Source of the DNA: Spirochaetia bacterium
GTDB taxonomy: Bacteria; Spirochaetota; Spirochaetia; SZUA-6; Fen-1364
Assembly: GCA_049515615.1 (NCBI GenBank)
Contig: JBEKTX010000002.1
Span: 1 to 42,181 of the forward strand
DNA: 42,181 nt
Direction of reading: 5' to 3'
Position 1 is the first letter of the stretch; each line of letters begins with the position of its first letter. Position numbers and translations under genes: made by a program. The notes beneath the pieces were generated by a model that saw only the letters and a list, made by a program, of their open reading frames with translations, ran no database searches and was not told where the DNA came from. Shown piece by piece: positions 186 through 40,920 of the stretch.

Positions 186-217
186 CCAGGACCATGCCCG
201 GGTAGGAAAAACGGGGT

Positions 218-257: not shown

Positions 258-263
258 GGAAAA

Positions 264-300
264 GCCGTGGTGCCTGTTGAACAGGTTCCACGGCTTTTTT
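264..300 (+). terminator. second rho-independent terminator directly upstream of trpE
   Basis: GCCGTGG(264-270)/CCACGGC(288-294) outer stem and CCTG(273-276)/CAGG(282-285) inner stem, followed by T6 (295-300) and preceded by AAAA (260-263). Confidence 0.6.
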
Positions 301-326
301 CATTGTCTCAGGCGGAGGAGGACAAT

Positions 327-6786: not shown

Positions 6787-6833
6787 CCGGCTCGTTCTTG
6801 AGATGAGGGTGTTCCATCTCGAAGGAGGGACCG

Positions 6834-21444: not shown

Positions 21445-22674
21445 CTATTTCCCGCCAATGCTGGAGTCCAGAATGCTGATCAGGTCCTGCCAGGGAATGG
21501 CCACGATGCCCTGGCCGAGACTGACCCTTCTCGGCGCGCGGCATACAACATAGCCGGCTTTAGCTGTAGGGTACTCATCCAGGAAGAGCCGCAGGTGACG
21601 TGCGTCAGATGCGCTGGGAGCCGTGGTCCACTTCACCTCGATCGGAGTGTAGTGACCTTCCTGGTCGGAGATCCAGTCGATCTCCGGGCCATCCGGATCG
21701 CGCCAGAAGCGTATGCGCGTTGAGGGCGCCGCCGCGCGTGACCAACGTAACAACTCCAGTCCCACCCATTGCTCGAAGAGCTGCCCCCACCGCGCAGGCA
21801 ACACCCGCCGGCCTTCCCGGGCAGCCACGCGCCGAACGCCCATGTCGAACAGCAGGTACTTGTCAGAGCGGGTGAGCTTCTTTCGTGTCGTGCTTGCCGT
21901 GAGCGGCTCGATCCTCTCAGCGATGAGGCAATCTTCGAGTACCTGGTAGTAGGCCGCGATCGTCGTGTGGGCGACGCCGACGTCCCCGGCGAGCCCGCGA
22001 AGGTTGACGATGCTTCCTGCCTCCGCGGCGGCCAGCTCGAGGAACCGGGCGAAAGCGCCCAGGCTTCGGACCGCCGCCTCTGCCCGTACCTCCTCCTCGA
22101 GGTACGTCGTGACGTACGCGGCAAGATCGGCCTCGCGGTCCACGGCGTCCTGCACCGCGGTGATGCCCGGCAGCGAGCCGTCGGTCAACGCGTCCTCGAG
22201 ACGCCGCGGGACCCGCTCGCGCAGCGAAAGCGGATCGAGGCGGAAGACCAGCGTGCGCCCGGGGAGCAGGTTCGCGGATGTTCCGCGCCTCAGCTTGCGC
22301 GCGCTGGATCCCGTCAGGATGAAGCGGGCGCGGCCGCGGTCCACAAGGTCCTGCACCTCGTCCAGCAGGCCGGGCACCTTCTGGACCTCGTCCAACACGA
22401 CGAGCGGAGCTGCCGCCCCTCCCGCCTTCAACGCCTCGACCTCCCCGCGGAGGAGCCCTGGCGATCTCTCGTAACGAAGCCGGACGTCGGGCAGGGAGAG
22501 CGAAACACGCATCGCACATGGTATGCGGTCGACCAGCGTGGTCTTCCCGGTCTGCCTTGCTCCAAACAGGAAAAGGGATTTGCCCCGCGCGAGTGCCTGC
22601 CGCAGGGGGTCCTCAAGGGCGCGAGGGATGTAGTCCATGCACTCCATTTTCGGCGGAATTGGAGTGTTTGTCAA
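21445..22674 (-). CDS. AAA+ ATPase with C-terminal DUF4143-type domain
   Basis: YIPR...LFLFGARQTGKTTLV Walker A, LVVLDEVQ Walker B, and a C-terminal region typical of AAA_14/DUF4143 proteins (...EIDWI....YTPIEVKW). The start may instead be ATG 22647 or 22638. Confidence 0.85.
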   Translation of the reverse strand: MTNTPIPPKMECMDYIPRALEDPLRQALARGKSLFLFGARQTGKTTLVDRIPCAMRVSLSLPDVRLRYERSPGLLRGEVEALKAGGAAAPLVVLDEVQKVPGLLDEVQDLVDRGRARFILTGSSARKLRRGTSANLLPGRTLVFRLDPLSLRERVPRRLEDALTDGSLPGITAVQDAVDREADLAAYVTTYLEEEVRAEAAVRSLGAFARFLELAAAEAGSIVNLRGLAGDVGVAHTTIAAYYQVLEDCLIAERIEPLTASTTRKKLTRSDKYLLFDMGVRRVAAREGRRVLPARWGQLFEQWVGLELLRWSRAAAPSTRIRFWRDPDGPEIDWISDQEGHYTPIEVKWTTAPSASDARHLRLFLDEYPTAKAGYVVCRAPRRVSLGQGIVAIPWQDLISILDSSIGGK

Positions 22675-22723: not shown

Positions 22724-24066
22724 TTGGCCGTCTATCCATGCGTGGCAGGCCAATTCGCTCTGCCCTTGGATGCGACGGCCCCGGGCACTTACCAACCGCG
22801 GGGTACAAGCTCGCTGCAGAGGCTCTTTCGCGTTCATCTTCCCGAGCTCCTCGCACGATACGACGCCGAGTTCGCCGCACGCTTGGGCAAGTACCGCCAG
22901 CAGCGCATCGCGAAGGCCCTGGAGCGCTTTCTGGACTGCGGGGACTATTCCATGGGCGTGGCCAGGATCAAGTGCACCAACCCGCAGTCCAAGAGCGAGT
23001 ACTTCCGCCCGTTCAGCTGCAAGGTCTTCCATCTCTGTCCTTCATGCTCGCAGAAGCGCACGCTGCTCTTCGGCGAGTACATGAACGAGCGGCTGCTGCT
23101 GCGCCTGCCCCACCGCCAGATCGTCTTCACTTTCCCCAAGGTCCTGCGCCTCTTCTTCCGCCATGACCACGAGCTCTTCGGTGTGGTCAGCAGACTCGCC
23201 TACCGCATGATGCAGGACTTCTACAGCACGGCCGCCGGCAGGAAGGTCCAGGGGGCCGCCGTCATTGCCTACGCCTCGGCGGGAGACTTCGTGCGATTCA
23301 ATCCCCACCTGCACGGCATCTTCCTCGAAGGCGGCTTCGATCGCAAAGGGCGATTCGTGCACGTGCCCTCGGTGGACCTGCAACGGCTGGCCCAGTACTA
23401 CCGCGCCTCCATGGTTACCTTCTTCCTCAAGCGCTCGCTCATCAACGAGCGCTTGGCCAGGAGCATGCTGAGCTGGACCCACAGCGGCTTCAGCCTGGAC
23501 ATGTCGGTGAAGATACCCGCCTCCTCCTCCCGAACCCGTGAGGCCCTGGCCCAGTACGTCGCCCGCTCCCCGGTCTCCCTGAGCAAGATGCTGGAGGAAG
23601 AACATGAGGGAAGTGTCCTGTACCGCTCGGAGTACAATCCCTACTTCAAGACCAACGCCCGCCTGTTCCCCGCCCGGGAGCTCCTCGTCCAACTCCTGCA
23701 GCACCTGCCCGATGCTCGGACCCACCTGGTGCGCCGCTACGGGTTGTACTCCTCCCCTTCCCGCGGCACATGGATTGAAAAGCCCTGACTGGTGCGCCTG
23801 GCCCCCGAGGGATGGCTGGAGCAGCACCCGGAGCAGCCTCCACCGCATGTGCGAGCCGTCCTCCAGGAGAGTGCCCAGCCGTCCGTCTCCACTCGGGAAT
23901 CCCGTTCCGCCTGGGCACGTCTGCTGGCCAAAGCCTACGAAGTGGACGCCTTGCGCTGTAGCCGCTGCGGCTCCCCGAAGAAGGTGCTGGCCTTCATTAC
24001 CAATCCCCAATAGTGCCGCAGGATCTTTCTGCACCTGATCAAGACCGGCCTTGCCCCTCCCGGCAT
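22724..24066 (+). mobile_element. IS91-family (HUH/Y2 rolling-circle) transposase gene, inactivated by two in-frame stops
   Basis: Zn-binding region CGDYSMGVARIKCTNP...FRPFSCKVFHLCPSCSQKR, HUH-like FNPHLHGIF, Tyr motif VRRYGLYSS, and C-terminal LLAKAYEVDALRCSRCGSPKKVLAFI...RRIFLHL. The same frame is kept throughout but is interrupted by TGA 23786-23788 and TAG 24011-24013. Confidence 0.75.
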
Positions 24067-24069
24067 AGA

Positions 24070-24564
24070 GGCATCTTGGCGCTGGTGGTCAGCATCATCA
24101 AAGGCGAAACCAGCATCCAAGAGGCCGCACGGGCGCATGGGTTGCCTGTCGCGGACCTCGAGGACTGGAAGGAACGGTTCTTCCTTGGCGCAGATAATGC
24201 GTTGCGAGCTCGGCCGAAGGATGATGAGGCCCTGCGCGAGGAGCAGGCCAAGAAGTTGAAGCAGAATATTGGTGACCTGGGACTGATCTTCCAGAGCAGA
24301 CAGTTTCGCGCAGCCTGCCGCGACTATCGACTCACGCAGGAGTTCATCACGCCGTACACCCCCGAACAGAACGGTATCATCGAGAGATTCTTCCGTAGCC
24401 TGAAAGATGAGTGTGTCTGGCAGCACAGCTTTCACAGTTTCGCTGAAGCCAAGGCGGCCATCCGTCAGTGGATCGAGTGGTACAATGTCGGTCGGCCGCA
24501 TCAGTCGCTGGGATACAAAATCCCTCGCGAGTACAGGACCCAATTACAGCAGTCGGTGGCTTGA
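24070..24564 (+). mobile_element. remnant of an rve-type (IS3/IS481-like) transposase with an internal deletion
   Basis: An OrfA-like HTH and coiled-coil region (IKGETSIQEAARAHGLPVADLEDWKERF...KKLKQNIGDL) is joined directly to the extreme C-terminus of an integrase-core domain (FITPYTPEQNGIIERFFRSLKDEC...WYNVGRPHQSLGY). The two catalytic Asp regions are missing. Confidence 0.7.
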
Positions 24565-24694
24565 AAGATTGGGAGCACTACAAGGTCGCGGCCCGCACCA
24601 GCGCGCCTGCGCGCACCAACCAGCACCTTCTCGTTCAACATTAATTCCCTCTATTCGAATTTTCTTTACTTGACCTGACTGACTAATTCTTCTT

Positions 24695-25690
24695 CTACGC
24701 TTTCGCTGCAACTACGGTTTTCTTGCCGATATTCTTTATAATCTTCTCATTTAAAACTATGGCCAGAACAAAAATAACGCCTTTCAAAATACTCTGCCAG
24801 AATGTTAATATATTCAACATATTCAGGCCATTTCCCAGACATGCGACAACCAGGGCGCCAAAAAAAGTACCGATAACGGAACCTTTACCGCCTGAAAGGC
24901 TTGTGCCCCCCAAAATGATTGCGAGAATTACGTCAAATTCAAAACCAACCGCACCTCTCGGATCACCGGCGCTTAATCTTGATGCGGACATGACGCCCGC
25001 AAACCCGGCAAGCCCTCCAATAATAACAAAGATGGAAAAAATGATCGCTCCCGTATTAATTCCAGAAAAGAAGGCCGCGTTTTTATTTCCGCCTATAGCC
25101 AGCGCATATTTTCCAAGAAGCGTCTTTTTTTCAATGAACACAAAGATAATCAGCGCAATGATTATAAATACAACAAATATCGGTAATCCAAAGAAATATC
25201 TGCTTGCTAAATAGCCTATTTCCGGGGGCATATTGTCGCGTATAGTTGCTCCATTAGCAAATATCAGGGCAATTCCTCTGGAAATATACATCATACATAA
25301 CGTAGCGATAAAAGGGGGGAAATTAAATTTCGTAACCATTGTTCCATTTATAATACCTATGATGATTCCAACACCAACCGCAATAATTCCTGCCGGAATT
25401 AAAGCCATCCCGTTTTTGATCATGAAAGCGTAGACACAACCTGTAAAAGCGACGACGCTTCCCGTAGACAGGTCAAAATTCCCCGTCATCATAAGAATTG
25501 TTGCTGCAGAAGCGACAATAATAATCATCGCTGTTTGTTTCAACACATAAAAATAATTATCAATTTGAAAGAAACTATCATATGCGGTTATGATAAAAAA
25601 AATGTTTATTAACAGGAAAAATGTAACAATAATAGATATTGGATTTCTATATATTTTTGAAAAATCTATTTTCCTATTCATATTATTCAC
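24695..25690 (-). CDS. CUT2-type sugar ABC transporter permease (RbsC-like), low-GC
   Basis: Polytopic hydrophobic protein with the RbsC/branched-chain permease pattern (GNFDLSTGSV, ATLCMMYISRG, GGTSLSGGKGSV). AT-rich codon usage. Confidence 0.9.
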   Translation of the reverse strand: MNNMNRKIDFSKIYRNPISIIVTFFLLINIFFIITAYDSFFQIDNYFYVLKQTAMIIIVASAATILMMTGNFDLSTGSVVAFTGCVYAFMIKNGMALIPAGIIAVGVGIIIGIINGTMVTKFNFPPFIATLCMMYISRGIALIFANGATIRDNMPPEIGYLASRYFFGLPIFVVFIIIALIIFVFIEKKTLLGKYALAIGGNKNAAFFSGINTGAIIFSIFVIIGGLAGFAGVMSASRLSAGDPRGAVGFEFDVILAIILGGTSLSGGKGSVIGTFFGALVVACLGNGLNMLNILTFWQSILKGVIFVLAIVLNEKIIKNIGKKTVVAAKA

Positions 25691-27207
25691 TCACCCTCTG
25701 CAATAATTTTTATAATCTGGTCGTTATCAATATTTTTTCCGTTCTTAACAATGGCAGATACTCTCCCATTATTCATAAATACGATTCTGTCGCATAAATG
25801 AAGAATTTCCGGTAGTTCCGATGAAAATACGATAACGCCTTTCCCTTGATTCGCAAGATTTCTTGTTATATCGTGAATTTCAAGTTTTGCTCCGACATCT
25901 ATGCCTCTGGTCGGTTCATCCATTAGAAGCACATCGCTTTCCCTGTTCAGACACTTGGATATAACAACCTTCTGCTGATTTCCTCCGCTTAAAAACGCGG
26001 CTTTCTGCTCCCTGTCTCTGGCCGCAATAGAAAGCATCTTGATGTAGTCATCCGCAATTTTGTTTTCTTTTGGCCTGCTAATGATACCATTTTTAAGAAT
26101 CGACTTGATTTTCATCATTGGAATGTTATCTTTAATAGATAGTTTCCCAAAAATCCCATCTTCTCTTCTTTCCTCGGGGATCATCGCAATGCCGTTTTTC
26201 AAAGCATCCCTTACTCTTTTATATTTTGCTATCTTTCCTTTAATAAATATATCCCCAGAATAGACATCAATTCCAAAAAGAACACGCGCCACTTCGCTTT
26301 TTCCCGCTCCCATCAATCCGTAAAATCCCAGAATTTCACCCTTGAAAAGATCAAAACTTACATTCTTTAATAGATCAGTATTTAAGTTTCTAACCTCTAG
26401 AAATTTTTCTGAATAATCAGTCTTACTTGGTATGTAGGATTCAATAACGACCCTTCCAAGCATCATTTTAACCAGTTCCAAACAAGCATCGGATGTATCA
26501 CCTTTGCATTCCTTATTGATTTCTTGAACAGTTTTAGTTGCGATGATTTTCCCGTCTCTTAGCACAGTCACAAAATCGCCTATTTCAAATACTTCGCTTA
26601 ATTTATGAGATATGTAAATAACCGTCATCCCGTTTTCTTTTAATTTCTTAACAACTTCAAATATTTTACTGGTTTCTTCCTCGCTTAATGAAGCTGTGGG
26701 CTCATCCATTACCAGTACCTTGCAGTCAATTGAAACCGCCTTGACAATTTCAATAATCTGTTTTTGCGCGGTGCTCAGCTCTCCTACCATCATATTAAGC
26801 TTAACTGTCTTATCGAGTTCTTTTAAGATCGAAAGCATTTTATCAAGGCTATCATCCTTCTGGATCATGCCAAATTTATGCTTCTCCCTGCCAAGTGTGA
26901 GATTTTCTTCGACAGTCAGGTCATTCACCACATTTAATTCCTGGTATATGGCGACAATACCATGATTTTTCGCGTCTTTAACGCTTTTTGGATCAAATGG
27001 TTTATCGTTAAGAATTATATCGCCCTTGGTTTTATTAACAACTCCCGTTAATATTTTAATAAATGTCGATTTACCCGAACCATTTTCACCTATAATACAA
27101 TGTATAGTATTTCTCTTTATATCAAAAACAATATTATCAAGGGCATGAACCCCTGGATACAGTTTATCTATTCCCTTAATACTTAATATAAAATCATTAT
27201 CCATCAT
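25687..27207 (-). CDS. sugar ABC transporter ATP-binding protein with duplicated NBDs (RbsA/MglA-like), low-GC
   Basis: Walker A GENGSGKST, signature LSTAQKQ / LSGGNQQK, Walker B LVMDEPT / LLMDEPT, giving two nucleotide-binding domains. 4-nt overlaps with both permease genes. Confidence 0.95.
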   Translation of the reverse strand: MMDNDFILSIKGIDKLYPGVHALDNIVFDIKRNTIHCIIGENGSGKSTFIKILTGVVNKTKGDIILNDKPFDPKSVKDAKNHGIVAIYQELNVVNDLTVEENLTLGREKHKFGMIQKDDSLDKMLSILKELDKTVKLNMMVGELSTAQKQIIEIVKAVSIDCKVLVMDEPTASLSEEETSKIFEVVKKLKENGMTVIYISHKLSEVFEIGDFVTVLRDGKIIATKTVQEINKECKGDTSDACLELVKMMLGRVVIESYIPSKTDYSEKFLEVRNLNTDLLKNVSFDLFKGEILGFYGLMGAGKSEVARVLFGIDVYSGDIFIKGKIAKYKRVRDALKNGIAMIPEERREDGIFGKLSIKDNIPMMKIKSILKNGIISRPKENKIADDYIKMLSIAARDREQKAAFLSGGNQQKVVISKCLNRESDVLLMDEPTRGIDVGAKLEIHDITRNLANQGKGVIVFSSELPEILHLCDRIVFMNNGRVSAIVKNGKNIDNDQIIKIIAEGE

Positions 27208-28175
27208 GAACCTCCCGGGTACTTGCGCTTTCTCAACATCTGGTCCGCAAAAACGGCGATTATCAGAAGCGCTCCCTTTGTTACTTCCTGATAAAAATAT
27301 GGTACGTTTAGCAGATTTAATCCATTCGCGACCAGGCCAACAATAAATGCTCCAAGTATCATTCCAAATGTAGAACCTTCACCACCAAGCATACTGGTGC
27401 CGCCAAGAAATATTGCCAGAAGCACATCAAATTCCATCCCGGTACCAATATTCGGATATGCCGATCCTACGCGGGATACCTGAATAACACCGCATAATCC
27501 GGCAAGCAAGCCTACAATCATGTATATTATGATTAAAACACTTGGAACATTTATCCCTGAAAGTTTTGAAGCGCTTTTATTACAGCCGATAGAATAACTA
27601 TATCTTCCAAGAACCGTTTTCTTCTCAATGAATATGAAAATTGCAACTACTATTATCATAAAAATGATAATGATTGGAATAACACCGAAAAGGTTTGTTC
27701 TTCCGAAATCGCTGAAATCCGGCGGAAGCCCCGCCGATATGTTCGCTCCGCCGTCCCATCTGGCAATAAGATAGGCAAAACCTCTCGCCGCATACATGGA
27801 ACCCATTGTAGCGATAAAGGGATTTACATTCAGGACCGCAACCATGATTCCGTTTGAAGCTCCCCATAGAATACCCAAAATGCAGCAAAACAGGATTGAC
27901 CATTCAATCGGTAGCACATTTTTTGTCATATAAGCGTGCATGATCGCGCAGAAAGCGAATACGCTTCCAACCGACAGGTCAAAATTTCCTGTAATCATAA
28001 GAAGATTAGCTGCCGAAGCGACAATAATCAGCGGAGCTATTTGAAGCAGTATATTGACAAAATTATCAATATTGAAAAATTTCGATGATAAAATTGACAT
28101 TACCAGGGTTATCACAAGTATCACACTGACAAGTACTGTTTTCTGCTGATCGAATCGTTCTAAAATTTTAAACAT
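27204..28175 (-). CDS. CUT2-type sugar ABC transporter permease (RbsC-like), low-GC
   Basis: GNFDLSVGSV, ATMGSMYAARG and GGTSMLGGEGS motifs parallel the other permease. Start at ATG 28175 (MFKILERF). The track extension to 28247 runs up to the edge of the low-GC block and is not permease-like. Confidence 0.9.
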   Translation of the reverse strand: MFKILERFDQQKTVLVSVILVITLVMSILSSKFFNIDNFVNILLQIAPLIIVASAANLLMITGNFDLSVGSVFAFCAIMHAYMTKNVLPIEWSILFCCILGILWGASNGIMVAVLNVNPFIATMGSMYAARGFAYLIARWDGGANISAGLPPDFSDFGRTNLFGVIPIIIIFMIIVVAIFIFIEKKTVLGRYSYSIGCNKSASKLSGINVPSVLIIIYMIVGLLAGLCGVIQVSRVGSAYPNIGTGMEFDVLLAIFLGGTSMLGGEGSTFGMILGAFIVGLVANGLNLLNVPYFYQEVTKGALLIIAVFADQMLRKRKYPGGS

Positions 28176-28319
28176 CACAAACCGTCCTGTTATATTATAA
28201 AATGACCAACGGCGGGCAGGAGTCGGGCGGAGGGGCAATATATACAAAGCATAGCTTTTAAGGATTTTTTGCAGCTGCCGGACGCCTGTCTGGTGACGGT
28301 GTACACTTGCGGGACGACT

Positions 28320-28382
28320 CTACGCGATGGCTGTGGCGAGCACGCTGGGAATCAGCGCCGCCATGAGGATCTTCTTCACCAT
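28320..28382 (-). pseudogene. 20-codon high-GC relic encoding only a signal-peptide-like sequence (MVKKILMAALIPSVLATAIA)
   Basis: AGGAGGAGAGAG RBS (reverse complement of 28385-28396) is followed by ATG 28382, a typical secretory or solute-binding-protein leader, then TAG. It sits exactly between the kinase gene and the low-GC block boundary. Confidence 0.4.
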
Positions 28383-28428
28383 CTCTCTCCTCCTGTTAAT
28401 TCTCTCTCCGGCCTGACAGGCCGGTTGT

Positions 28429-29970
28429 CTACTTCTGCAAATCGGCCAGCGCGGCGAACACGCCGCTTCGGTCGAGGCCCTCGTAGCCCCGGCAGTACAC
28501 GTCATAAAGCCGCGCGTAGGTCTGCACGTTCTCTGGGATAGGCTCGAAGCGCTCGTCGAGCCGGACCATCGCGTCCGCTCCTTCCTCGATGGAGGAGAAG
28601 ACCGCGGCGCCCACGCCCCCCAGGATGGCGGCGCCCAGCACGGTGGCGTCCGTGACCTTCAGCGTTGTCACGGGCACGCCGTACACATCAGCCTGGATCT
28701 GGTTCCACACGCGGGACTTCGTGGGACCGCCCAGGAGGCGGGCTTCCGTCACCCGGAGTCCCGATCGTGCCATGGAGCTCACCATGTCCTTCATGTCCAG
28801 CGTGATGCCTTCCATGAACGCCCGGGCGATGTCGAACCGGGTGTGCGAGAACGTGAGCCCCACAATCGTTCCCCGGGCCAGGGGATTGTACCGGGGCGTT
28901 CCAGCGGCCGCGAAATAGGGGAGTACAAGCAGTCCGCGGGATCCGGCGGGTACCGCGGAGACACGGTCGTTCATGAAGTCGTAATAGTTGCGGCCGCCGG
29001 TCTCGGCATCGCGGGCTTCCTGCGCGCCGAACCGCTCCTTGAACCAGCGGTAAACGCTGGCCGCCGCCGCCTGGTATCCCTCGAGAAGCCAATGCCCTTT
29101 GATCGGATGGGCCGTCACGATCATCCGTCCCTCCGCGTCGCGGATGGGGGCGTCCAGGAACGCAGCCACCGCCCCCGCCGTCCCCATGGAAACCGAAATT
29201 AGCCCCCCGCGAACGATTCCGGCGCCGACCGCGCCCGCGCTCTGGTCCCCGGCGCCGACGCTCACCTGCGTTCCGGCCCGCAGGCCGATGCGCGAGGCAG
29301 CCGACGACGAGATCCGGGCCACGGGCGTTCCCGATGGCCGCGGAACCGGCAACAGCGAGGCGTCGATGCCGAATAGTTGCAGCAAGCGTGCGTTCCAGCA
29401 TCCCGCCGCGGAGTCAAAAAAGCCGAAATAGCCCGCGTCGTTCCAGTCCACCACGTAATCGTCCGCGCCGAGCGCCCGCACGAAATAGTCGTGCATCTGT
29501 ACGACCCGGCGCGTCTTGTTCCAGACTTCCGGCTCGTTTCGGCGGACCCACATCATCTTGGACAGGAGCCACGTCGTGCTGTTGGGATATCCCGTGAGCC
29601 GGTAGAGCTCCCTCTCATCAATCCGGGCGGCGATTTCCTTCACTTCCGCGGTGGTACGGTTGTCCTGCCAGGAAATCATGGGCCGCACCTGGTGGTCATT
29701 CGCGTCCAGGAAGATCCCGCAACAGCGCTGCGCGGACAGTGACAGGGACACGATGGCCTTCGGCGGGACGTTGCTGGCCCGCACGGCTTCCGCCATGGCC
29801 TGCATGGTGGATTCCACCAGGAGATCCGCGTCCTGCTCGACCCAGCCCGGACGGGGATACGTGCAGGGATACTCCCGGTAGCCCGCGCCAAGCGCGGTTC
29901 CCGCGAGATCGAAGACCATGCCCTTGGCGCCGGAGGTGCCGATGTCGATTCCCGCCAGATAGGTCTCCAT
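28429..29970 (-). CDS. FGGY-family carbohydrate kinase (xylulokinase/glycerol kinase-like), intact copy B
   Basis: N-terminal LAGIDIGTSGAKGMVFD, YPRPGWVEQD and a C-terminal GGPTKSRVWNQIQADV-type FGGY signature. High-GC. Confidence 0.9.
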   Translation of the reverse strand: METYLAGIDIGTSGAKGMVFDLAGTALGAGYREYPCTYPRPGWVEQDADLLVESTMQAMAEAVRASNVPPKAIVSLSLSAQRCCGIFLDANDHQVRPMISWQDNRTTAEVKEIAARIDERELYRLTGYPNSTTWLLSKMMWVRRNEPEVWNKTRRVVQMHDYFVRALGADDYVVDWNDAGYFGFFDSAAGCWNARLLQLFGIDASLLPVPRPSGTPVARISSSAASRIGLRAGTQVSVGAGDQSAGAVGAGIVRGGLISVSMGTAGAVAAFLDAPIRDAEGRMIVTAHPIKGHWLLEGYQAAAASVYRWFKERFGAQEARDAETGGRNYYDFMNDRVSAVPAGSRGLLVLPYFAAAGTPRYNPLARGTIVGLTFSHTRFDIARAFMEGITLDMKDMVSSMARSGLRVTEARLLGGPTKSRVWNQIQADVYGVPVTTLKVTDATVLGAAILGGVGAAVFSSIEEGADAMVRLDERFEPIPENVQTYARLYDVYCRGYEGLDRSGVFAALADLQK

Positions 29971-29978
29971 GGCCGTCG

Positions 29979-30146
29979 CTACAACGAGTCCTTGTACATC
30001 TGGATGACGTCCGCGCGGCCGAACGGCTTCAGGCTGCAGTTCAGGCAGTCGCCCATGGTCTTGAAGGTGGAATCCGTCATGGCCTCGATCATCTCCTCCT
30101 TGACGCCCAGGTCATGCATGCGAACCCGGCAGCCGAACCTTTCCAC
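29979..30146 (-). pseudogene. C-terminal fragment (about 55 codons) of an iron-containing alcohol dehydrogenase, copy B
   Basis: ERFGCRVRMHDLGVKEEMIEAMTDSTFKTMGDCLNCSLKPFGRADVIQMYKDSL aligns with the C-terminus of the intact ADH at 32234-33415 (EKFGCRVRMSDLGVKASMIEAMADSAFKTMAGCLNCSLKSLSRADVIALYKASL). Confidence 0.8.
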
Positions 30147-30189
30147 AAAACAAAGAGAAAGGATAAAGTATTTCATTTATCCTTTCTCT
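30142..30189 (-). terminator. rho-independent terminator of the low-GC solute-binding-protein gene
   Basis: A perfect 14-bp inverted repeat, AGAGAAAGGATAAA (30154-30167) / TTTATCCTTTCTCT (30176-30189), with an 8-nt loop. On the minus strand it is followed by TTTGTTTTGTGG. Confidence 0.7.
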
Positions 30190-30215
30190 AAATTAATCTT
30201 TTCTTGCTATATGGA

Positions 30216-31244
30216 TTATTTCTTTTTGCTTTTAGCTACATCGGCTACAAGTTTCCCTTTATAACCATAATTATCCATCAGGAATACCTGGGCGTCTTCG
30301 ATAGAAGTCTGCCAGTAATCAATTTCTTTAACGAAACACTGAATAATCTGGAATTTGTTCATATCAATTTTGCCTTGAATCATTCCCATCATACAATCCA
30401 TTTCAGCACGAGCGACATCGCGTACGGCACCATTAGAAATTTTGAATGAACAGTCTGGATCATATATTTTGATCAGCGCGGAGGAGTTTCCGTCAACACC
30501 GGCTATGATTTCAGTCAGCGGCTTGCCATTGTCCATTTTTCCTCTTCCTTTCTGTTCGCAGGCCGCAAGAGCTCCAAGAGCCATTTCATCATTTCCGCCG
30601 AAGAAAATATTTATTTCCGGATGAGCCTGGAGAATATCAAGGGTTACTTTCATTGATTCTTCGGTAGAACCCTGACCGTTAAGAACAGTAACAAGTTCCG
30701 CTTTCGGATCGACAGCTTTAACGCCTTCAAAGAAAGGCACGAATCTCAAAACCTCTCCCTGTTCCCATGCGCCGAAATTAAGAATAGCGACTTTGCAGGG
30801 TTTATTCGGGAAAGCTTTTAGCCATTGCTGTGCAGCTATTTTACCTTCGGCATAGGATGCCGGCGTTTCCATCGGCTGAACATGAGGTGCATTCTTTGAG
30901 TCAGGGTAAATCAAAGTGGTTACAATAGGGATTCCTTTGGCATGCGCAAGTTCGATAGCCTTTGCAGTTAAAGCCGTTTCAGGGCTGTGAATCGAAATAG
31001 CGTCAACTTTCTGCGCAATGAGATTTTCAACGGCGGCAAGCATTTTTTCTCCTGTTCCTCCGCCGTCAAGAATGATTACCTTGACTCCGTACATTTTCGG
31101 TCCATAACTTTGAAGTTCCCTGGCAATTGACTGATGGAACTGATGTTCCATGGTATAAACGACATGCCCTACCGTGATTGGCTTGGCGTAACCTAGCGGT
31201 AACACCAGAGCAACCGCTAACACAGCTAACATTAGCTTCTTCAT
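30216..31244 (-). CDS. periplasmic sugar-binding protein of a CUT2 ABC transporter (RbsB-like), low-GC
   Basis: Signal peptide MKKLMLAVLAVALVLPLGYA. Peripla_BP-type pattern (DAISIHSPE, IPIVTTLIYPD, FFGGNDEMALGALAA). GAGGAGGAAG RBS precedes ATG 31244. The track start at 31259 is a TTG inside that RBS. Confidence 0.9.
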   Translation of the reverse strand: MKKLMLAVLAVALVLPLGYAKPITVGHVVYTMEHQFHQSIARELQSYGPKMYGVKVIILDGGGTGEKMLAAVENLIAQKVDAISIHSPETALTAKAIELAHAKGIPIVTTLIYPDSKNAPHVQPMETPASYAEGKIAAQQWLKAFPNKPCKVAILNFGAWEQGEVLRFVPFFEGVKAVDPKAELVTVLNGQGSTEESMKVTLDILQAHPEINIFFGGNDEMALGALAACEQKGRGKMDNGKPLTEIIAGVDGNSSALIKIYDPDCSFKISNGAVRDVARAEMDCMMGMIQGKIDMNKFQIIQCFVKEIDYWQTSIEDAQVFLMDNYGYKGKLVADVAKSKKK

Positions 31245-31328
31245 CTTCTTCCTCCTCAATTAAATTTGAATCGGCTCAAACCGCCGATTTTCAACAAAAT
31301 TAGTTACCATGATGGCGTAGCGCGCCAT

Positions 31329-31837
31329 GGTGCTGTCGTTGCCCGTTCCCGGTTTCTCGTGCCATTTCGTGTTCGTGATCACCCACCAGGAGGTCGTCTC
31401 CGAGCCGGTTCCCGCGGTCGTAGTGACGCAGATGATGGGGAACGCCGGCTTCGTTCCTCCAACGTGGCGTGGGGTCCTCCGGCGAGGTAGTCCAGGATGG
31501 TTCCGCCTCCCTGGGCAGCCAGGAACGCCACGGCCTTGGCGGAGTCCATGGAGCTTCCCCCGTCGAGCCCTAACGCGAAGTCGCATTTGCTCGTGAGGAA
31601 CACCCTGGTTTGGCGGTCGATGTCCACGTCCTTGGGGTTGGGGTCCACGTTATCGGAGACGACGACGTCAACGCTGCCCTTCTTGAGCAGTTCTACTGCC
31701 CTGTCCAGGATACCGGTCTGCTTGGCAGCGAGTAGCATCGCTCTTTTGCCGGTGGTCGGTGCAATCTCCTGGAGCCGCCTGAGCTCACCATTTCCGAAGA
31801 AGACTCTAGTAGGTACGCTGAAATCGAATGCCTTCAT
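31329..31837 (-). pseudogene. N-terminal part (about 170 codons) of the iron-containing alcohol dehydrogenase, copy B, with a frameshift
   Basis: MKAFDFSVPTRVFFG...GGSSMDSAKAVAFLAAQGGGTILDYLAGGPHA (frame of track ORF 31379-31864) continues as GTKPAFPIICVTTTAGTGSETTSWWVITNTKWHEKPGTGNDST in the frame of ORF 31260-31586. A 1-nt indel lies near 31452-31465. Homology to the intact copy stops at about 31310-31329. Confidence 0.8.
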
Positions 31838-32009
31838 GCCCCGCTCCTCCGGGCTATGCAACAAATATTAGTCTTGTTCTAAATAACAAACTACTATGGC
31901 GTAGTCTCTCATATTCAGGACTATATGTCAAATGAATTCTTGAGATTTTTATGTTGATCATGAGATTAGCGGTTGGTGTAAAGTGCTGTTCGCAATTTTG
32001 GGTTGAAAG

Positions 32010-32222
32010 GAGGCGCTTCACCCCGCTCTGCACCGCGGCCCGGGCCATGGCGTCCATGGTGGCCTCCACCAGGTGGTCCGCGTCCTGCTCGACCCATCCC
32101 GGCCGGGGGTAGGTGCAGGGGTACTCCTGGTAGGCGCTGGCCAGGGGGTTGCCCGCCAGGTCGAACACCATGGCCTTGGCCCCGGAGGTGCCGATGTCCA
32201 CGCCGGCCAGGTAGGTCGCCAC
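32010..32222 (-). pseudogene. N-terminal fragment (about 69 codons) of an FGGY kinase, copy A
   Basis: MATYLAGVDIGTSGAKAMVFDLAGNPLASAYQEYPCTYPRPGWVEQDADHLVEATMDAMARA parallels the N-terminus of the intact kinase at 28429-29970. The rest of the track ORF (to 31854) is AT-rich non-homologous sequence. Confidence 0.8.
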
Positions 32223-32233
32223 CGCCGCCCCTC

Positions 32234-33415
32234 CTACAGCGATGCCTTGTACAGGGCGATCACGTCGGCGCGGGACAGGCTCTTCAGGCTGCAGTTCAGG
32301 CAGCCGGCCATGGTCTTGAAAGCTGAGTCGGCCATGGCCTCGATCATGGAGGCCTTGACCCCCAGGTCGCTCATCCTCACCCGGCAGCCGAACTTCTCCA
32401 GCGTCTTCTCCAGCGCCTCCGGCGAGCGGCGGGCCAGCTCCTGGTCGGACTCACCGGCCCTGGCGTGGCCGAGGATGCGCGTGACCTCGGCGTAGCGGAC
32501 GACGTCCGCGTCCCAGGTGTGGCGCATGTAGGCCGGACCCACGGCGGCCATGGTCAGCCCGTGCGGGGCGTCCGTCTGCCCGCCGATGGAGTGCCCCAGG
32601 GCGTGGATGCCCACGGTCGAGGACTTGCCCTCGCCGATGGTGATGCCGGCGATGGTGTTGGCCCAGGCCATCTGGCTGCGGGCCTCCAGGTCCTGGCCAT
32701 TGTCGAGGGCCCGACCCAGGTGCTGGACCACCAGGCGCATGGCCTCGCGCGAGAACAGGTCGGTGAAGGGGGTGGCCACGTTGGAGAGGAAGGACTCCAT
32801 GGCGTGGAACAGCACGTCGATGCCGGTGTTGCGCGTGACCTCCCGGGGCACCGAGAGCATCAGCTCGGGGTCCACGATCGAGACCGCGGGGCGAGTGCTG
32901 TCGTTGCCGGTGCCCGGCTTCTCATGGTGTTTCGTGTTGGTGATGACCCACCAGGGCGTGGTCTCCGAGCCCGTGCCGGCCGTGGTGGTGATGCACAGGA
33001 TGGGGAAAGCCGGCTTGGTGCCGGCGAGGTCGGCGTGCGGGCCGCCAGCCAGGTAGTCGAGGATCGTGCCGCCGCCCTGGGCCGCCAGGAAGGCCACGGC
33101 CTTGGCCGAGTCCATGGAGCTGCCCCCGCCCAGGCCCACCGCGAAATCGCATTTCTCCCGGAGGAACACCTGGGTCTGCCGGTCGATGTCCACGTCGCGC
33201 GGGTTGGGCGCCACGTCGTCGGACACCACCACCTGCACTCCGCCCTCTCGCAGCAGGCCTTCCACCCGCTGCAGGGTCCCGGTCTGCCGCATCGTGTCCT
33301 TGGCAGCCAGGAGCATGGCCTTCCTGCCCAGCTCGGCGGCGGTCGCCTTGGCCTGCTTCACCTCGCCGGCGCCGAAAAACACGCGGGTGGGGACGCTGAA
33401 GTCGAATACTTTCAT
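32234..33415 (-). CDS. iron-containing (group III) alcohol dehydrogenase, intact copy A
   Basis: GGGSSMDSAKAVA, TTAGTGSETT and metal-ligand region HALGHSIGG. GAGG RBS lies 6 nt upstream of ATG 33415. Confidence 0.9.
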   Translation of the reverse strand: MKVFDFSVPTRVFFGAGEVKQAKATAAELGRKAMLLAAKDTMRQTGTLQRVEGLLREGGVQVVVSDDVAPNPRDVDIDRQTQVFLREKCDFAVGLGGGSSMDSAKAVAFLAAQGGGTILDYLAGGPHADLAGTKPAFPILCITTTAGTGSETTPWWVITNTKHHEKPGTGNDSTRPAVSIVDPELMLSVPREVTRNTGIDVLFHAMESFLSNVATPFTDLFSREAMRLVVQHLGRALDNGQDLEARSQMAWANTIAGITIGEGKSSTVGIHALGHSIGGQTDAPHGLTMAAVGPAYMRHTWDADVVRYAEVTRILGHARAGESDQELARRSPEALEKTLEKFGCRVRMSDLGVKASMIEAMADSAFKTMAGCLNCSLKSLSRADVIALYKASL

Positions 33416-33572
33416 GGTGCCTCGCTTGGTAGGAATTTAGAAATTAGGCATCTATGCCCTATCATTTTAAAAAGTAGCAGCATGCGAGGCAGATTATGGC
33501 AGAATTGAATCCAAATGTCAATAAAAATTTTAATAATTTTTACTGGTAGATTTTCATTATATCGAGAACCGC

Positions 33573-34532
33573 TTACAGCAGCGCCCGGGCCAGCCCTTCG
33601 TCGGCCACCAGGGTGCCGATCAATCCACCAAGCAGGGCCGCCCGCACCGCCTCCGCCTTCTCGGGCCCCGCGGCCACCCCAACGCGCCTGGGGATGCGCA
33701 GGAGCGCCTCCGCCCCGATCCCGACCAGCCGCGCGTTCCAGGGACACGGGAAAGGCCGGCCCTCGGCGTCGATGTGCAATCCGCACACCGTGCCCACGGC
33801 CCCCGCGGCAAGAAGGCGCCTGGATTCCGCCGCGCTCAGGAAGCCGGTCCGCACCAGGGAGCTGGAGCGCGGGCGGTTGGTGCCGATTCCGAACAGGGCC
33901 AGATCGGCCCGGGCGCCCCTCTTCAGGGTCTCCGCGATGCCGGGCTCGCGCACCAGCTGCTCGCGCAGCTCGCGGCTGGCCACCGAGATCGGCGCCTGGA
34001 TGACCCGGTACCGGCCGTGCAGCTTTTCCGCCAGGCCCTGGGCCAGGCCGAAGGCGTCGATGGCCGGGTCCTCGGCGCCCAGCCCGCCGTGCAGCTGCAC
34101 CACCTCCACGCCGCGCAGCTCCAGGGGACGCAGGTGGCGCACCACTTGGAAGAGGGTCGTGCCCCAGCTCAGGCCGATGCGCAGGCCGGCGGCGGCCATG
34201 CCCGACAGTTCCATTTCCAGCCAGGCGGCGGCCGCCTGCCCCACCCGGCGCTTGGCCGCCTCCGCGTCCGCTTCCGCCGGGGCCACCACGGCCGCCGCCA
34301 GGCGGTAGCGCTCCTTCAGCTCGGCCTGCAGGCGCAGGATCGCCGAAGGCGAGTCGACGATGCGGATCTCGACGATCCCCTGTTCGCGGCAGGCCTTGAG
34401 CGCGAGCGAGACCGAGGAGCGCGAGATGCCGAAGCGGCGGGCGATGTCCGCCTGCGACAGCCCCTGCTCGTGGTAGAGCCGGGCCACCTCGATCAGGAAG
34501 TCCCGCCGGCCGGCGTCGCGCGCGGAAGCCAT
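33573..34532 (-). CDS. SorC/DeoR(B. subtilis)-family sugar-binding transcriptional regulator
   Basis: The N-terminal HTH (LIEVARLYHEQGLSQADIARRFGISRSSVSLALKACREQGIV.I) is followed by a SorC-type sugar-phosphate binding domain (GLSWGTT, LFGIG). The start abuts the E2 stop. Confidence 0.85.
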   Translation of the reverse strand: MASARDAGRRDFLIEVARLYHEQGLSQADIARRFGISRSSVSLALKACREQGIVEIRIVDSPSAILRLQAELKERYRLAAAVVAPAEADAEAAKRRVGQAAAAWLEMELSGMAAAGLRIGLSWGTTLFQVVRHLRPLELRGVEVVQLHGGLGAEDPAIDAFGLAQGLAEKLHGRYRVIQAPISVASRELREQLVREPGIAETLKRGARADLALFGIGTNRPRSSSLVRTGFLSAAESRRLLAAGAVGTVCGLHIDAEGRPFPCPWNARLVGIGAEALLRIPRRVGVAAGPEKAEAVRAALLGGLIGTLVADEGLARALL

Positions 34533-38655: not shown

Positions 38656-38767
38656 AGCTGCTGCACGCGCTTGGCCCCGTAGGTGCCGCGGGGCTAGCTC
38701 GTTACGAACACGTTCACCCCAGCTGCCATCACGGCCGCCTTCGGCGAGCGCATCGGAGGCCCTGGAG

Positions 38768-39628
38768 GGCGATGTATTGGGAGAGGGCTTCGCGGGCTTC
38801 GATCGAGAAGGCGGGTATACGGATCGAATGATCGATGGAAAAACCGGAGTGCTTCCAGTTGATGAGGCTGGTGGCCAGAGTGGCGTTGATGAGCTGTTTG
38901 TTCAAGAAGAACTTGATGATCAAGCGGCGAAAGTACTCCGTCATTCTTTGAAGATTCCCAAGGGGAATATGTACAAACCTGCCCCTCTCATCGAAACCAC
39001 CCTCCAATACGATGCAGTGGTAATGGGGGTTAAACTTCAAATATTCGCCTGCTGACTGATACGCCAGGACCATCCCGGTCTTGATCTGCCTTCCTGCTGC
39101 CTTGTCGTAGAAACGCTTTATGATGACGAAAATGAGTCGGCTGATGTCGGAGAACAGCCGGCGGTTATGGCGGAAATAGGGTCTCAACAGCTTGGGGAAG
39201 GTGAAGACGAATTGGCGGTGGGGCAAGGACAGAAGGAGCCGGCCCTTCATGTACTCCGAAAACAGCAGGGTTCGCTTCTGCGAGCAGGACGGGCTGAAGG
39301 AGAATCCTTTGCAGGAGAAGGGGCGGAAATACGCATATTTGCAGTCCGGATTGGTGCATTGAATGCGGGCAATCCCCTGGGAATAGTCTCCGCAGCGGAT
39401 GAACTTCTCCACCACCTCCGTGATACGCTCGATGCGGAAGCGACCGTAGATGACGGCGTGTTTGTTCTCGTACTGATCAGCGAAACTCTGAAAGTGTTTT
39501 TTGAACAGGAGCTGGACGGCGTTGATTCCCCTCGGCAGGTAGACCGCCTTCTTGATCGGAGCGATCTGAAGAAGATCCTCGCCACGGCCCGCCGCCGCTC
39601 GCTGAAGGCGCAGCCCGCGTGATGCCAA
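38768..39628 (-). mobile_element. second, diverged and 3'-truncated IS91-family transposase relic
   Basis: CGDYSQGIARIQCTNPDCKYAYFRPFSCKGFSFSPSCSQKR, FNPHYHCIVLEGGFD and LINWKHSGFSIDHS parallel copy 1. Homology ends after ...EALSQYIA, so the Tyr-motif region is missing. There is no in-frame ATG near the expected start. A spot count of one 60-nt line gives 47% G+C. Confidence 0.75.
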
Positions 39629-39634
39629 TATCAG

Positions 39635-39676
39635 GACGGGGTGGAGGGGCGCGGGCGGGGACCCTCGCACCCCGTC
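39635..39676. other. strong GC-rich hairpin flanking the 5' side of the IS91 relic
   Basis: GACGGGGTGGAGGG (39635-39648) pairs with CCCTC-g-CACCCCGTC (39662-39676), giving 14 bp with one bulged G and a 13-nt loop. No T-tract on either strand. Confidence 0.5.
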
Positions 39677-39761
39677 GGTCCCGAACAGGCGCCGGGGGAC
39701 AGTGTTGATGGCGTCATCACATAGTGTTACAGTGGGGAACTCGCGTATGGGCGACCCCACG

Positions 39762-40592
39762 ATGTCGAAACACGCCGGCAATCCTGCCTACATCATCCCC
39801 AATCTCGACCGCGCCCTGCGCATCATGGAGCATCTGAGCACGCGCCGGGAGGGCAGCTCGATCACGGAGATCGCCACGCAGCTCTCTCTGCCGAAGAACA
39901 GCGTCTTCCGGATCGTGCGGACGCTGGCGGCAAGCGGGTACCTCGACGAGCACGGCAAGTCCTGGCGACTCAGTCCCAAGATCCTCTCCCTGGGCTATAC
40001 CGCCGTGCAGAGCACGAACCTCATCAGTGCATGCATGGACGAGATGCGCATGCTGCGAGACGAGATCAACGAGACCATCTTCGTGGGCGCGCTTTCGGAA
40101 GGCAAGGTCGTCATCCTCGAGGAGCTCGCGTCCTTCCAGCTCGTCAAGTTCACTGTCGAGATCGGCCACAGGGTCCCCATCCATGCCTCTGCGCCCGGCA
40201 AGGCCATCCTGGCGCACCTGCCGCCCGCCGAACAGAAGGACCTCCTGGCGCACATCGCCTTCACCCGGTTCAACGACAGGACCATCCCGGGGATGAAGGC
40301 CATGCAGGCTGAGATCGAGAAGATCATGCAGCTGGGCTATGCGCTTGACCTCGGCGAGGAGGTTGCCGAAATCTGGTGTGCCGCCAGCCCGGTGCTCGAC
40401 TACCGCGCGTATCCTATCGCCTCCATCTGGCTCTCGGGCCCCCAGTTCCGGTTGGCTAATATGGACCTGGCCCGCGTCGGCGCTGTGGTGCGAGAGCATG
40501 CGCTGCGCATCTCGAAGCAGTTCGGCTACGATCCATCGGTTGCCCGGCAACCCGGCGGTGGGAAGATGCCTGGGGAATCGTCCGCCTCGTAG
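39762..40592 (+). CDS. IclR-family transcriptional regulator
   Basis: The N-terminal wHTH (LDRALRIMEHLS......SITEIATQLSLPKNSVFRIVRTLAASGYL) is followed by an IclR effector-binding domain (HASAPGKAILA, GYALDLGE). Start ATG 39762 is chosen; the track start is 39702. Confidence 0.85.
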   Translation: MSKHAGNPAYIIPNLDRALRIMEHLSTRREGSSITEIATQLSLPKNSVFRIVRTLAASGYLDEHGKSWRLSPKILSLGYTAVQSTNLISACMDEMRMLRDEINETIFVGALSEGKVVILEELASFQLVKFTVEIGHRVPIHASAPGKAILAHLPPAEQKDLLAHIAFTRFNDRTIPGMKAMQAEIEKIMQLGYALDLGEEVAEIWCAASPVLDYRAYPIASIWLSGPQFRLANMDLARVGAVVREHALRISKQFGYDPSVARQPGGGKMPGESSAS

Positions 40593-40603
40593 GAGGTGCA
40601 CAT

Positions 40604-40920
40604 ATGGCCGAGATCACGCGTATCCAGGCCCAGAACCAGTGTGGCGAATCACCCATCTGGAACCCGCGGACAGCGACGCTGTCCTGGGTCGACACGTAGA
40701 AACCCCTTCTCGCCGCGCTCTCCGACGGGAGCGAATGCGCGATGTCGAAGCCGACGAGCCGGCTCGTGCAGGCCATCGGCCTTCGCCGCTCGGGCGGCTG
40801 GGTAGCGGTGGTGCGGGACGGGTTTTCATTTATGCAGGCCGACGGCACGGAGACGCGCTTCCTGGGCAACCCCGTCGAGGGTCTTCCGCATATGACTATG
40901 AACGACGGAACCGTCGGCCC
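40604..40920 (+). pseudogene. 5' part of a second SGL/gluconolactonase gene, with an in-frame stop and truncated
   Basis: MAEITRIQAQNQCGESPIWNPRTATLSWVDT then TAG (40697-40699). The same frame continues ...LVQAIGLRRSGGWVAVVRDGFSFMQADGTETRFLGNPVEGLPHMTMNDGTVGP, paralleling the intact lactonase at 37780. Homology ends near 40920. Confidence 0.65.

Follow-up and report, generated by a model that had tools for sequence, protein, structure and literature searches.

Mosaic operons arise by horizontal transfer and in-situ xenologous gene displacement (Omelchenko et al. 2003, Genome Biol 4:R55, as cited in PMC1274311), and the effector modules of Vibrio cholerae's type VI secretion system, or T6SS, undergo sequential displacement by homology-facilitated illegitimate recombination that leaves orphan remnants (PMC5361080). 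The locus described here lies in a stretch of 42,181 nucleotides (nt) from a Spirochaetia bacterium, a high-GC (G+C content) member of the Spirochaetota of peat and wetland (assembly GCA_049515615.1, contig JBEKTX010000002.1, positions 1 to 42,181, forward strand; hereafter the window). It contains one intact copy of each of six genes, in the order alcohol dehydrogenase (ADH), substrate-binding protein (SBP), FGGY carbohydrate kinase, permease, ATPase and permease, together with pieces of a second ADH and a second kinase. The ADH and kinase genes had a GC of 65-75%; at their boundaries with the SBP block and with the permease-ATPase-permease block it fell abruptly to 30-47%. With fairly good confidence, the locus is interpreted as a mosaic operon assembled from three sources: the frame of one lineage (A), a block from a second lineage (B), and a low-GC foreign transporter.

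More than 10 related Spirochaetota loci (given L numbers below) are of uniform GC and are arranged as ADH-kinase-SBP-permease 1-ATPase-permease 2, with an E1/E2/SorC cluster upstream and an IclR gene downstream. The single-module state of each type was found among these relatives. The intact A-type state is represented by L084/L085, in which the E1beta, E2, SorC, and ADH genes precede a complete kinase gene and then those for SBP, permease, ATPase, permease, and IclR, every one of them in the same direction and of 63-73% GC; the ADH of these loci has 91% amino acid (aa) identity to ADH-A of the window. The intact B-type state is represented by L002, which comes from a long-read metagenome-assembled genome (MAG) with an 876-kb contig; in it, intact ADH-B and kinase B genes are followed by the same low-GC permease-ATPase-permease set as in the window, and the low-GC SBP cassette stands upstream of ADH-B behind a second promoter copy and a scrap of an IS3 insertion sequence (IS). 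A second B-type locus, L092, has intact ADH-B and kinase B and the foreign permease-ATPase-permease genes; its contig begins near ADH-B, leaving the cassette position outside its coverage. Kinase B of the window shares 95% aa identity with the L002/L092 kinases.

The operon of the window is read on the minus strand. Module A comprises the intact iron-containing ADH-A gene of the A lineage (32234..33415; 393 aa; PF00465/PF25137, i.e., Fe-ADH and ADH_Fe_C, both full-length at 156.6 and 150.9 bits, above the gathering score), a spacer of 11 nt, and a kinase-A stub (kinA', 32006..32222) with a GTG start, containing about 70 codons (32222 to ~32013) of an A-type FGGY kinase (FGGY_N positions 1-66, E 1e-11). 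Module B comprises two ADH-B pseudogene pieces, one N-terminal (31307..31837, codons 1 to ~176; Pfam Fe-ADH, E 1.9e-22) and one C-terminal (29979..30145, the last 55 codons and the stop; tblastn E 3.5e-21), each covering just a portion of the ADH profile, and, after an 8-nt spacer, the intact B-lineage kinase B gene (28429..29970; 513 aa; FGGY_N and FGGY_C). A preliminary description of this stretch had recognized both modules and had counted exactly one functional copy of each gene; its coordinates, spacers, and identities proved correct, and no further ADH or kinase copy was found within the 42,181 nt.

Pairwise alignment of the two modules gave 76.4% identity over 504 aligned nt of the ADH 5' part and 80.1% over 352 nt spanning the ADH 3' end and the kinase 5' end, and a repeat search returned the same pairs (D1-D4). 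At the protein level, the ADH-B pieces were 75.2% identical to ADH-A over 230 columns, in line with the earlier estimate of about three-quarters. The 4-residue indel noted at that time is real and corresponds to a 12-nt deletion in the ADH-B pseudogene, the 12 nt being kept in the intact ADH genes of L002 and L092. An ADH tree, confined to the 230 columns still covered by the ADH-B pieces, placed ADH-A with L081, L083, L086, and L084/85 and the ADH-B pieces with L002/L092 (93% aa identity), with several other lineages between the two clades. The C-terminal ADH-B piece was 77% identical in nucleotides to the ADH-A 3' end and 86% identical to the ADH-B 3' end of L002/L092. The full-length kinase closest to the kinase-A stub was that of A-type L084/85 (83% aa identity, vs 75% to kinase B). 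A scan of the genome collection found one locus per MAG, including the B-type MAG behind L002, and A-type and B-type loci had the same flanking gene families, the E1 cluster upstream and IclR downstream. Because the ADH clades are separate, the stub is nearest to the A-type kinase, and each MAG has one locus, A and B appear to be a single locus in two high-GC peat Spirochaetota lineages, that is, xenologues rather than intragenomic duplicates. The tree and the kinase comparison thus bear out the earlier view that the modules differ in origin and do not represent a recent duplication.

The truncated kinase of module A ends in a composite sequence. A-type kinase homology runs to 32016 and is followed by 10 nt, CGCCTCCTTT, and then by AT-rich DNA of about 170 nt (31838..32005, minus strand) that is 82-83% identical in nucleotides to the promoter copies of L002 and L092 and is designated PB, the B-type promoter region. 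The sequence CGCCTCCTTT (32016-32006) matches codons 74-77 of the A-type kinase and resembles the L002 sequence upstream of the B-type promoter; the joint thus shows a suggestive microhomology of about 10 nt, CGCCTCCTTT vs CCGCTCTTTC, as seen in a single alignment comparing L084/85 and L002. The same joint is common to L097, L081/L082, and L098, and in L083 a deletion spans its position. Because the B-type promoter region follows the stub directly, the kinase-A truncation is best explained as a recombination joint, apparently with short microhomology, and not as mutational erosion.

Module B was interrupted in a different manner. A low-GC cassette of 1.16 kb (30146..31306, minus strand), comprising a leader hairpin, a ribosome-binding site (RBS), the complete SBP gene (ATG 31244 to 30216; Peripla_BP_4), and an attenuator or intrinsic terminator hairpin 3' of the gene (30154..30189; 14-bp stem followed by a T-run), takes the place of the central 471 nt of ADH-B (L002 9350-9820) and is 92.5% identical in nucleotides to L002 7335-8500. 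Aligned with the intact L002/L092 ADH-B, the N-terminal piece is 94% identical in nucleotides and shows 13 gap positions. The 12-nt deletion, near 31720 between AAGCA direct repeats, was present in the window and L082; L096 and L097 lack it, as do the intact B-type genes of L002 and L092. A 1-nt frameshift near 31456 (GGG to GG) was present in the window and in L001, an independent Joint Genome Institute (JGI) contig, only. Both lesions appear to be late and strain specific, and ADH-B seems to have been destroyed by replacement with the SBP cassette, not by erosion. The earlier proposal that paralogous modules had decayed in complementary fashion is therefore not supported: kinase A ends at a joint and ADH-B was cut by a cassette. 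The L002 arrangement, with the cassette upstream of an intact ADH-B, could be derived from the window type by a microhomology deletion (TAAC/TAGC). An exact-protein look-up of the SBP from TTG 31259, the start given in the open reading frame (ORF) list, returned no match because that codon is not the start used by gene callers.

The genes downstream of kinase B have a third origin. Permease 1 (28175-27204; BPD_transp_2), the ATPase (27207-25687; ABC_tran), and permease 2 (25690-24695; BPD_transp_2), all on the minus strand, had a GC of 0.38, compared with 0.44 for the SBP gene and 0.66 for native kinase B. The foreign SBP was 79% identical in aa sequence to the SBP of contigs L100/L101, and the foreign permease-ATPase-permease proteins were 74-77% identical to those of the same contigs vs 56-67% to the native high-GC versions. 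L100/L101 have a uniform GC of 36% and contiguous SBP-permease-ATPase-permease genes, are the closest relatives outside the clade (74-79% aa identity), and, in L100, show a hairpin after the SBP gene equivalent to that of the window. These comparisons suggest that a third, low-GC (~36%) source supplied the SBP, both permeases, and the ATPase. The P0028 locus, which has a contiguous foreign transporter beside an E1 cluster and an ATPase 79% identical to that of the window, was not used as a donor or intermediate.

Remnants of the native transporter persist on both sides of the foreign genes. Kinase B is followed, within 28320..28424 on the minus strand, by a hairpin (28424-28408; CCGGCCTGTCAGGCCGG) that is conserved across the family and aligns with the kinase-SBP intergenic hairpin of L003, L009, L005, and L092, and by a native B-type SBP stub (28382-28320) consisting of an RBS and 20 codons of signal peptide, MVKKILMAALIPSVLATAIA, ending in a stop codon, which aligns with the SBP signal peptides of the same four loci. 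Behind the foreign permease 2 lies a native A-type permease-2 stub (24583..24638, minus strand; the last ~18 codons, LNEKVLVGARRRAGAGRDL), which aligns better with the 3' ends of L086, L084, and L085 than with the B-type and is cut by an IS3 end at 24582. Because the native SBP stub and the native permease-2 stub bracket the foreign block, the foreign permease-ATPase-permease genes would have displaced the native SBP-to-permease-2 stretch in place. The foreign SBP gene sits in a noncanonical position, inside ADH-B. The hybrid of two related ADH-kinase cassettes with foreign transporter blocks proposed in the preliminary description is thus upheld as to its mosaic origin, and the account is extended by the third source, the native SBP and permease-2 stubs, and the IS remnants, which it lacked.

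The B-lineage and foreign sequences together form a block of 7.4 kb (~32005-24639) with A-type stubs on both sides, and the simplest reading of this bracketing is that the block replaced the interior of an A-type operon. Upstream of ADH-A, the co-directional SorC/DeoR-family regulator gene (33573..34532, minus strand; Pfam Sugar-bind and HTH) is likewise A-type, its product having 93% aa identity to L083 and 82% to L084 vs 57% to B-type L002; the E1alpha, E1beta, and E2 genes of a 2-oxoacid dehydrogenase (37732-34533, minus strand) come first in reading order. A streamlined version was found in L086 (Ga0154384_1295, 1-7400), in which an A-type ADH and 10 kinase-A codons are followed by the foreign SBP, kinase B, and the foreign permease-ATPase-permease genes, and then by an A-type permease-2 stub and an A-type IclR gene. 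In L086, kinase B follows the SBP hairpin immediately and has a new RBS; neither ADH-B piece is left, and the B promoter has been lost, as have the native SBP stub and 50 nt downstream of permease 2. By this arrangement, L086 confirms the A-type frame around the B/foreign block.

In the Lawrence and Ochman amelioration model, acquired AT-rich genes reportedly gain AT-to-GC changes, mainly synonymous, while the protein is conserved. The foreign genes of the window (24695-28175 and 30216-31244) were compared with those of L092, L002, L086, and L102. The GC of the foreign transporter rose from 0.38 in the window to 0.43-0.44 in L092/L002 and 0.48 in L086, and between the window and L086 the foreign genes had 394 sites with A/T in the window and G/C in L086, with 50 sites showing the reverse. 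Synonymous divergence (dS) was 0.55-0.98 in the foreign genes, vs 0.11-0.15 in two native genes of this operon, ADH-A and kinase B, and nonsynonymous divergence (dN) was low throughout. The foreign genes therefore appear to be drifting visibly towards host GC, with amelioration in progress. The case differs from the model in offering a graded series among co-occurring strains (GC 0.38, 0.43, and 0.48) and in having native genes in the same transcription unit that serve as an internal clock for the GC drift of foreign AT-rich genes under purifying selection.

Two candidate promoters were located. PA, before ADH-A (33493..33521, minus strand; TTGACA, 17 nt, and CATAAT, the -10 hexamer having TG upstream), is near-consensus with an extended -10 and gave the best promoter-like match in the region (11/12 positions); its layout is homologous to that of ADH promoters in related loci. 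PB consists of TTGACA at 31931-31926, TGn and GAGACT at 31911-31903, an operator-like palindrome at ~31892-31873, and the RBS GGAGG; its -35 element and TGn are perfect, and its -10 element reads GAGACT where L002/L092 have GAGAAT or GATAAT. The ADH promoters of L002, L092, L003, L005, L009, L084, and L102 and window 31873-31931 share TTGACA, 17 nt, and an extended -10, followed by inverted GAACAA/TTGTTC half-sites that are perfect in L009 and probably constitute an operator of the SorC-type regulator; in the A-type promoter of the window the palindrome is another one, GGCATAGATGCC. The hairpin 3' of the SBP gene folds at -18 kcal/mol, was one of two terminator-like sites in the scan, and is ancestral to the foreign operon and kept in all versions; it probably acts as a usual intra-operon attenuator. 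Among the contigs of close relatives in wetland metatranscriptomes, depth was highest over the SBP gene and lower over kinase B.

On the basis of these data, the following course of events is proposed. The frame would be an A-lineage operon, E1a-E1b-E2-SorC-ADH-kinase-SBP-permease-ATPase-permease, whose interior, from kinase codon 70-77 to permease-2 codon ~312, would have been exchanged for the 7.4-kb B-lineage block. Before the transfer, the block's own transporter would already have been replaced by the low-GC foreign one, and the foreign SBP cassette would already have broken up its ADH. Joining would have been illegitimate, with short microhomology at one joint and IS3 and IS91 remnants nearby, and would have left as stubs kinase A, the two ADH-B pieces, 20 native SBP codons, and ~18 native permease-2 codons. 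Transcription would proceed from PA and PB, and the attenuator hairpin after the SBP gene would yield an excess of SBP with reduced read-through into the kinase and membrane components.

Several points weigh against this scheme. The -10 element of PB appears weakened, expression of the downstream genes may be blocked by the strong terminator that separates the SBP gene from kinase B, and no transcript contig of close relatives in the wetland metatranscriptomes crosses a joint or the SBP terminator. At the right-hand joint, between the sequence downstream of the foreign permease 2 and the A-type permease-2 stub, no homology anchor was found in the compared sequences, and homology-facilitated, double illegitimate, and IS-mediated routes of recombination could each have been taken. 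The window also holds remains of both locus versions: the frame and the E1/SorC genes are A-type, and beyond the operon lie a second permease-2 3' stub, which is B-type (39566-39622, plus strand), and a B-type IclR region (39.7-40.9 kb). Window 39566-40921, covering this stub and the IclR region, was 82-89% identical in nucleotides to B-type L002, L092, L095, and L096 and 74-76% identical to the A-type, and the genes at 18-21 kb were only 72-77% identical to those of B-type L092. Because the IclR region and the second stub are B-type and the operon frame is A-type, either lineage may have been the recipient, and a larger exchange, or one in the reverse direction, is possible. The hybrid operon stands in a different context in L081, and IS elements may have moved the whole hybrid. 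Finally, the SBP cassette has a nearly identical 5' boundary beside three different left partners: in L002 the promoter, in the window ADH-B codon 176, and in L102 kinase codon 3. Such near-constancy is not predicted by the simple model.

On the broader reading given below, the near-constant boundary of this promoterless cassette hints at a specific mechanism of mobilization or a recombination hot-spot, possibly of the IS91 one-ended type or IS3-assisted, instead of random illegitimate joins. In addition, a contig of sequencing run X2 agrees with the SBP cassette as far as the 5' boundary (window 31300) and then runs on into unrelated sequence with the loose end AGAGTAATCCTGGAGCTGCTTGATCTCGCA, which was present in none of the related loci compared; the contig indicates another left-hand context of the cassette in a co-occurring strain. 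The block of foreign SBP, kinase B, and foreign transporter was found in at least three lineages: the A-type (window and L086), the B-type (L002 and L092), and a third (L102). A broader reading, for which the odds are held to be distinctly low, is that foreign SBP cassette-kinase B-foreign permease-ATPase-permease forms a horizontally spreading operon-replacement module in co-occurring peat Spirochaetota. At the same low level of credence, each entry of the module would displace the resident kinase and transporter, spare the resident ADH, and have its joint in the first 3-77 codons of the kinase of the recipient. If this were true, a new transporter specificity would have swept selectively across species boundaries.

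Among the competing explanations, the one that survives best, still an unlikely one, is ectopic recombination within one genome, by which native A-type and B-type paralogous loci would have been merged through IS-mediated inversion or recombination with no transfer between lineages. The A-type frame (24.6-37.7 kb) and the B-type permease-2 stub and IclR region (39.6-40.9 kb) do lie within 15 kb, and the altered context in L081 would fit. The region is also bracketed by an IS3-family remnant with an internally deleted transposase (24013..24582, plus strand; rve_3, rve_2, and HTH_28), whose terminal repeat ends at 24582, and by two IS91-family remnants in inverted orientation: a transposase gene in the left flank (22724..23788, plus strand; Zn_Tnp_IS91 and Y2_Tnp) and a second transposase fragment (38729-39565, minus strand; Zn_Tnp_IS91) that abuts the B-type permease-2 stub. 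These two IS91-family genes, which bracket the 15-kb operon region, are 53% identical in aa sequence and share no nucleotide repeat, and the candidate view that they are copies of one element was rejected. No composite transposon with two copies of the same IS was found in the window, which held only the IS3 fragment and the two IS91-family genes, and no long inverted or direct IS repeats were detected there. In L002, IS3 ends occur on both sides of the operon, and the terminal repeat of the window's IS3-family remnant recurs there, with a transposase scrap, beside the SBP cassette and after permease 2. Against ectopic recombination stand the single locus in each related MAG, long-read L002 included, the shared flanking families, which are expected of orthologous positions, and the purely A-type flanks around the B/foreign block in streamlined L086. 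An ATPase gene of the AAA_14/DUF4143 type, a kind often found with mobile elements, adjoins the IS91-family transposase gene (21445-22674, minus strand).

It is considerably less probable that the hybrid is a dead, decaying locus, a graveyard of fragments from repeated IS activity. Five pseudogene stubs, the IS remnants, the weak PB -10 element, and the strong terminator upstream of kinase B would suit such a fate, as would L096, which lacks a transporter and whose kinase B is truncated at codon 84, and the deletions found in L095 and L094. The reading frames of all six full-length genes, however, are open in strains whose DNA diverges by 5-15%, the dN/dS values being 0.05-0.34 overall (ADH-A, 0.12-0.34; kinase B, 0.13-0.20; foreign permease-ATPase-permease, 0.05-0.20), and all six are under purifying selection. 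The fragments diverge faster than the intact genes and carry strain-specific indels: relative to L082, the kinase-A stub was 91.9% identical with a 9-nt deletion and the C-terminal ADH-B piece 90.4% identical, whereas ADH-A reached 98.7% and kinase B 97.7%. Conserved motif residues have also been lost from the stubs (e.g., DIGTSGAK to DIGTFGAK). The dN/dS values of the short fragments, based on 1-12 substitutions, are noisy, one fragment (ADH-B codons 128-175) having been scored out of frame, and were used qualitatively only. L086 and L102 have lost most or all of the scars and kept the six-gene set, the SBP terminator hairpin is ancestral to the foreign operon and is retained throughout, and SBP and kinase transcripts of close relatives occur in the wetland metatranscriptomes. 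The evidence thus suggests that the operon retains function. As a separate observation, metagenome contigs L096, L095, and L094 are decayed B-type loci from which the entire native transporter has been deleted, native permease-2 codon 244-272 being fused to codon 84 of the kinase, to codon 219 of the ADH, or to the stop of the kinase.

Very improbable is the duplication model, in which the complementary decay of the preliminary description would have followed a tandem ADH-kinase duplication within one genome, the ADH being lost independently in one copy and the kinase in the other. The locus does present two ADH-kinase modules head to tail, their short spacers alike, and exactly one intact gene of each kind, and tandem duplication of this ADH is a genuine event elsewhere in the family: in another lineage, L006 (7368-9985; Spirochaetales bin_125) has two intact, near-identical ADH genes in tandem upstream of the kinase. 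The copies in the window, however, are 76-80% identical and fall in different clades, with single-module relatives at the same genomic position; ADH-A and ADH-B are not each other's closest relatives, and the kinase stub is nearer to the A-type kinase than to kinase B. Moreover, the stub runs straight into a B-type promoter, the primary lesion of ADH-B is a cassette replacement to which point lesions were added later in particular strains, and A-type stubs flank the B block on both sides.

The chance that the locus is an assembly chimera, in which contigs of a low-GC and two high-GC organisms were mis-joined to give a GC mosaic with duplicated fragments, is practically negligible: sharp steps from ~36-45% to 65-70% GC at gene boundaries of metagenome-derived sequence are what such an error would produce, but the JGI contig L001 (10,124 bp) is identical to window 37004-26881 except for one mismatch, Logan contigs from four peat-metagenome runs of different samples and studies cover each joint with no differences and at an even depth of ~4-8x (those of run X1 cover 31718-33807, 31012-31718, 29222-30182, and 27534-29251), and identical joints recur in diverged strains at 85-96% identity (L081, L082, L096, L097, L098, and L102). 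Because contigs from at least four independent peat metagenomes cross every junction, an assembly artefact is, for practical purposes, excluded for the locus structure.

The gene set and domain families match polyol and pentose operons with a SorC/DeoR regulator, a dehydrogenase, a XylB-like FGGY kinase, and a ribose-type ABC importer. The best named relative of kinase B was XylB (NCBIfam TIGR01312), at 340.8 bits, below the cut-off of 380.25, and in contrast to the known operons none of the NCBIfam equivalog cut-offs was reached by the ADH, kinase, SBP, or regulator. In PDB sequence searches, kinase B was nearest to LsrK and gluconate kinase (~190 bits), and the ADH to methanol and propanediol dehydrogenases. 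The SBP was nearest to RbsB models and the regulator to DeoR/LsrR models. As the NCBIfam matches were all below cut-off and the PDB relatives only generic, naming of a pathway was dropped; the substrate may be a polyol or sugar that is oxidized by the ADH and then phosphorylated by the kinase. The linkage to an E1alpha/E1beta/E2 cluster of the acetoin/pyruvate type is unusual for such operons. In L102 (17-21.5 kb) and the P0028 locus, bacterial microcompartment shell genes (BMC, EutN/CcmL, and CsoS1D-like) stand, together with genes for an aldehyde dehydrogenase, DeoC, and RpiB, a few kb downstream of the homologous operons, which hints at a link between the operon family and a microcompartment that processes sugar phosphates or aldehydes. 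Spurious ORFs (122, 161, and 65 aa) are called when such loci are annotated automatically, and pathway completeness in uncultured peat spirochaetes may be mis-scored.

In kind, the locus seems to be an ordinary mosaic operon formed by in-situ xenologous displacement, albeit an unusually well documented one. Mosaic operons are usually inferred from phylogenetic incongruence long afterwards; here, the scars are still readable as stubs of every displaced gene, apparent microhomology at a joint, and IS remnants. Related strains from the same habitats represent two intact parents, decaying versions, and a streamlined descendant, which together form a stepwise record of how an operon was rebuilt and tidied. 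The main value of the locus lies in this preserved series of intermediates and in the amelioration gradient beside native genes.

As in the Vibrio cholerae T6SS clusters (PMC5361080), an incoming module displaces part of a resident cluster, an illegitimate join is made, apparently at short microhomology, and orphans remain. The present locus differs in that both ends of the B block look illegitimate, no homologous anchor having been found, and in that the IS3 and IS91 remnants point to transposon assistance as an alternative route; the orphan pieces of this locus are nonfunctional stubs, whereas those in Vibrio cholerae are retained immunity genes. The likeness to the mosaic operons of Omelchenko et al., as that work is cited, lies in composition and phylogeny, the gene content being conserved while some members are swapped in place by distant xenologues. 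Relative to those operons, so far as the citing account describes them, the spirochaete locus differs in that stubs of the displaced native genes, which can be dated, persist at both ends, that two displacements appear to be nested, first from a low-GC donor into the B lineage and then of the B block into the A lineage, and that the intermediates, from intact parents to a scar-free descendant, were found in related metagenomes.

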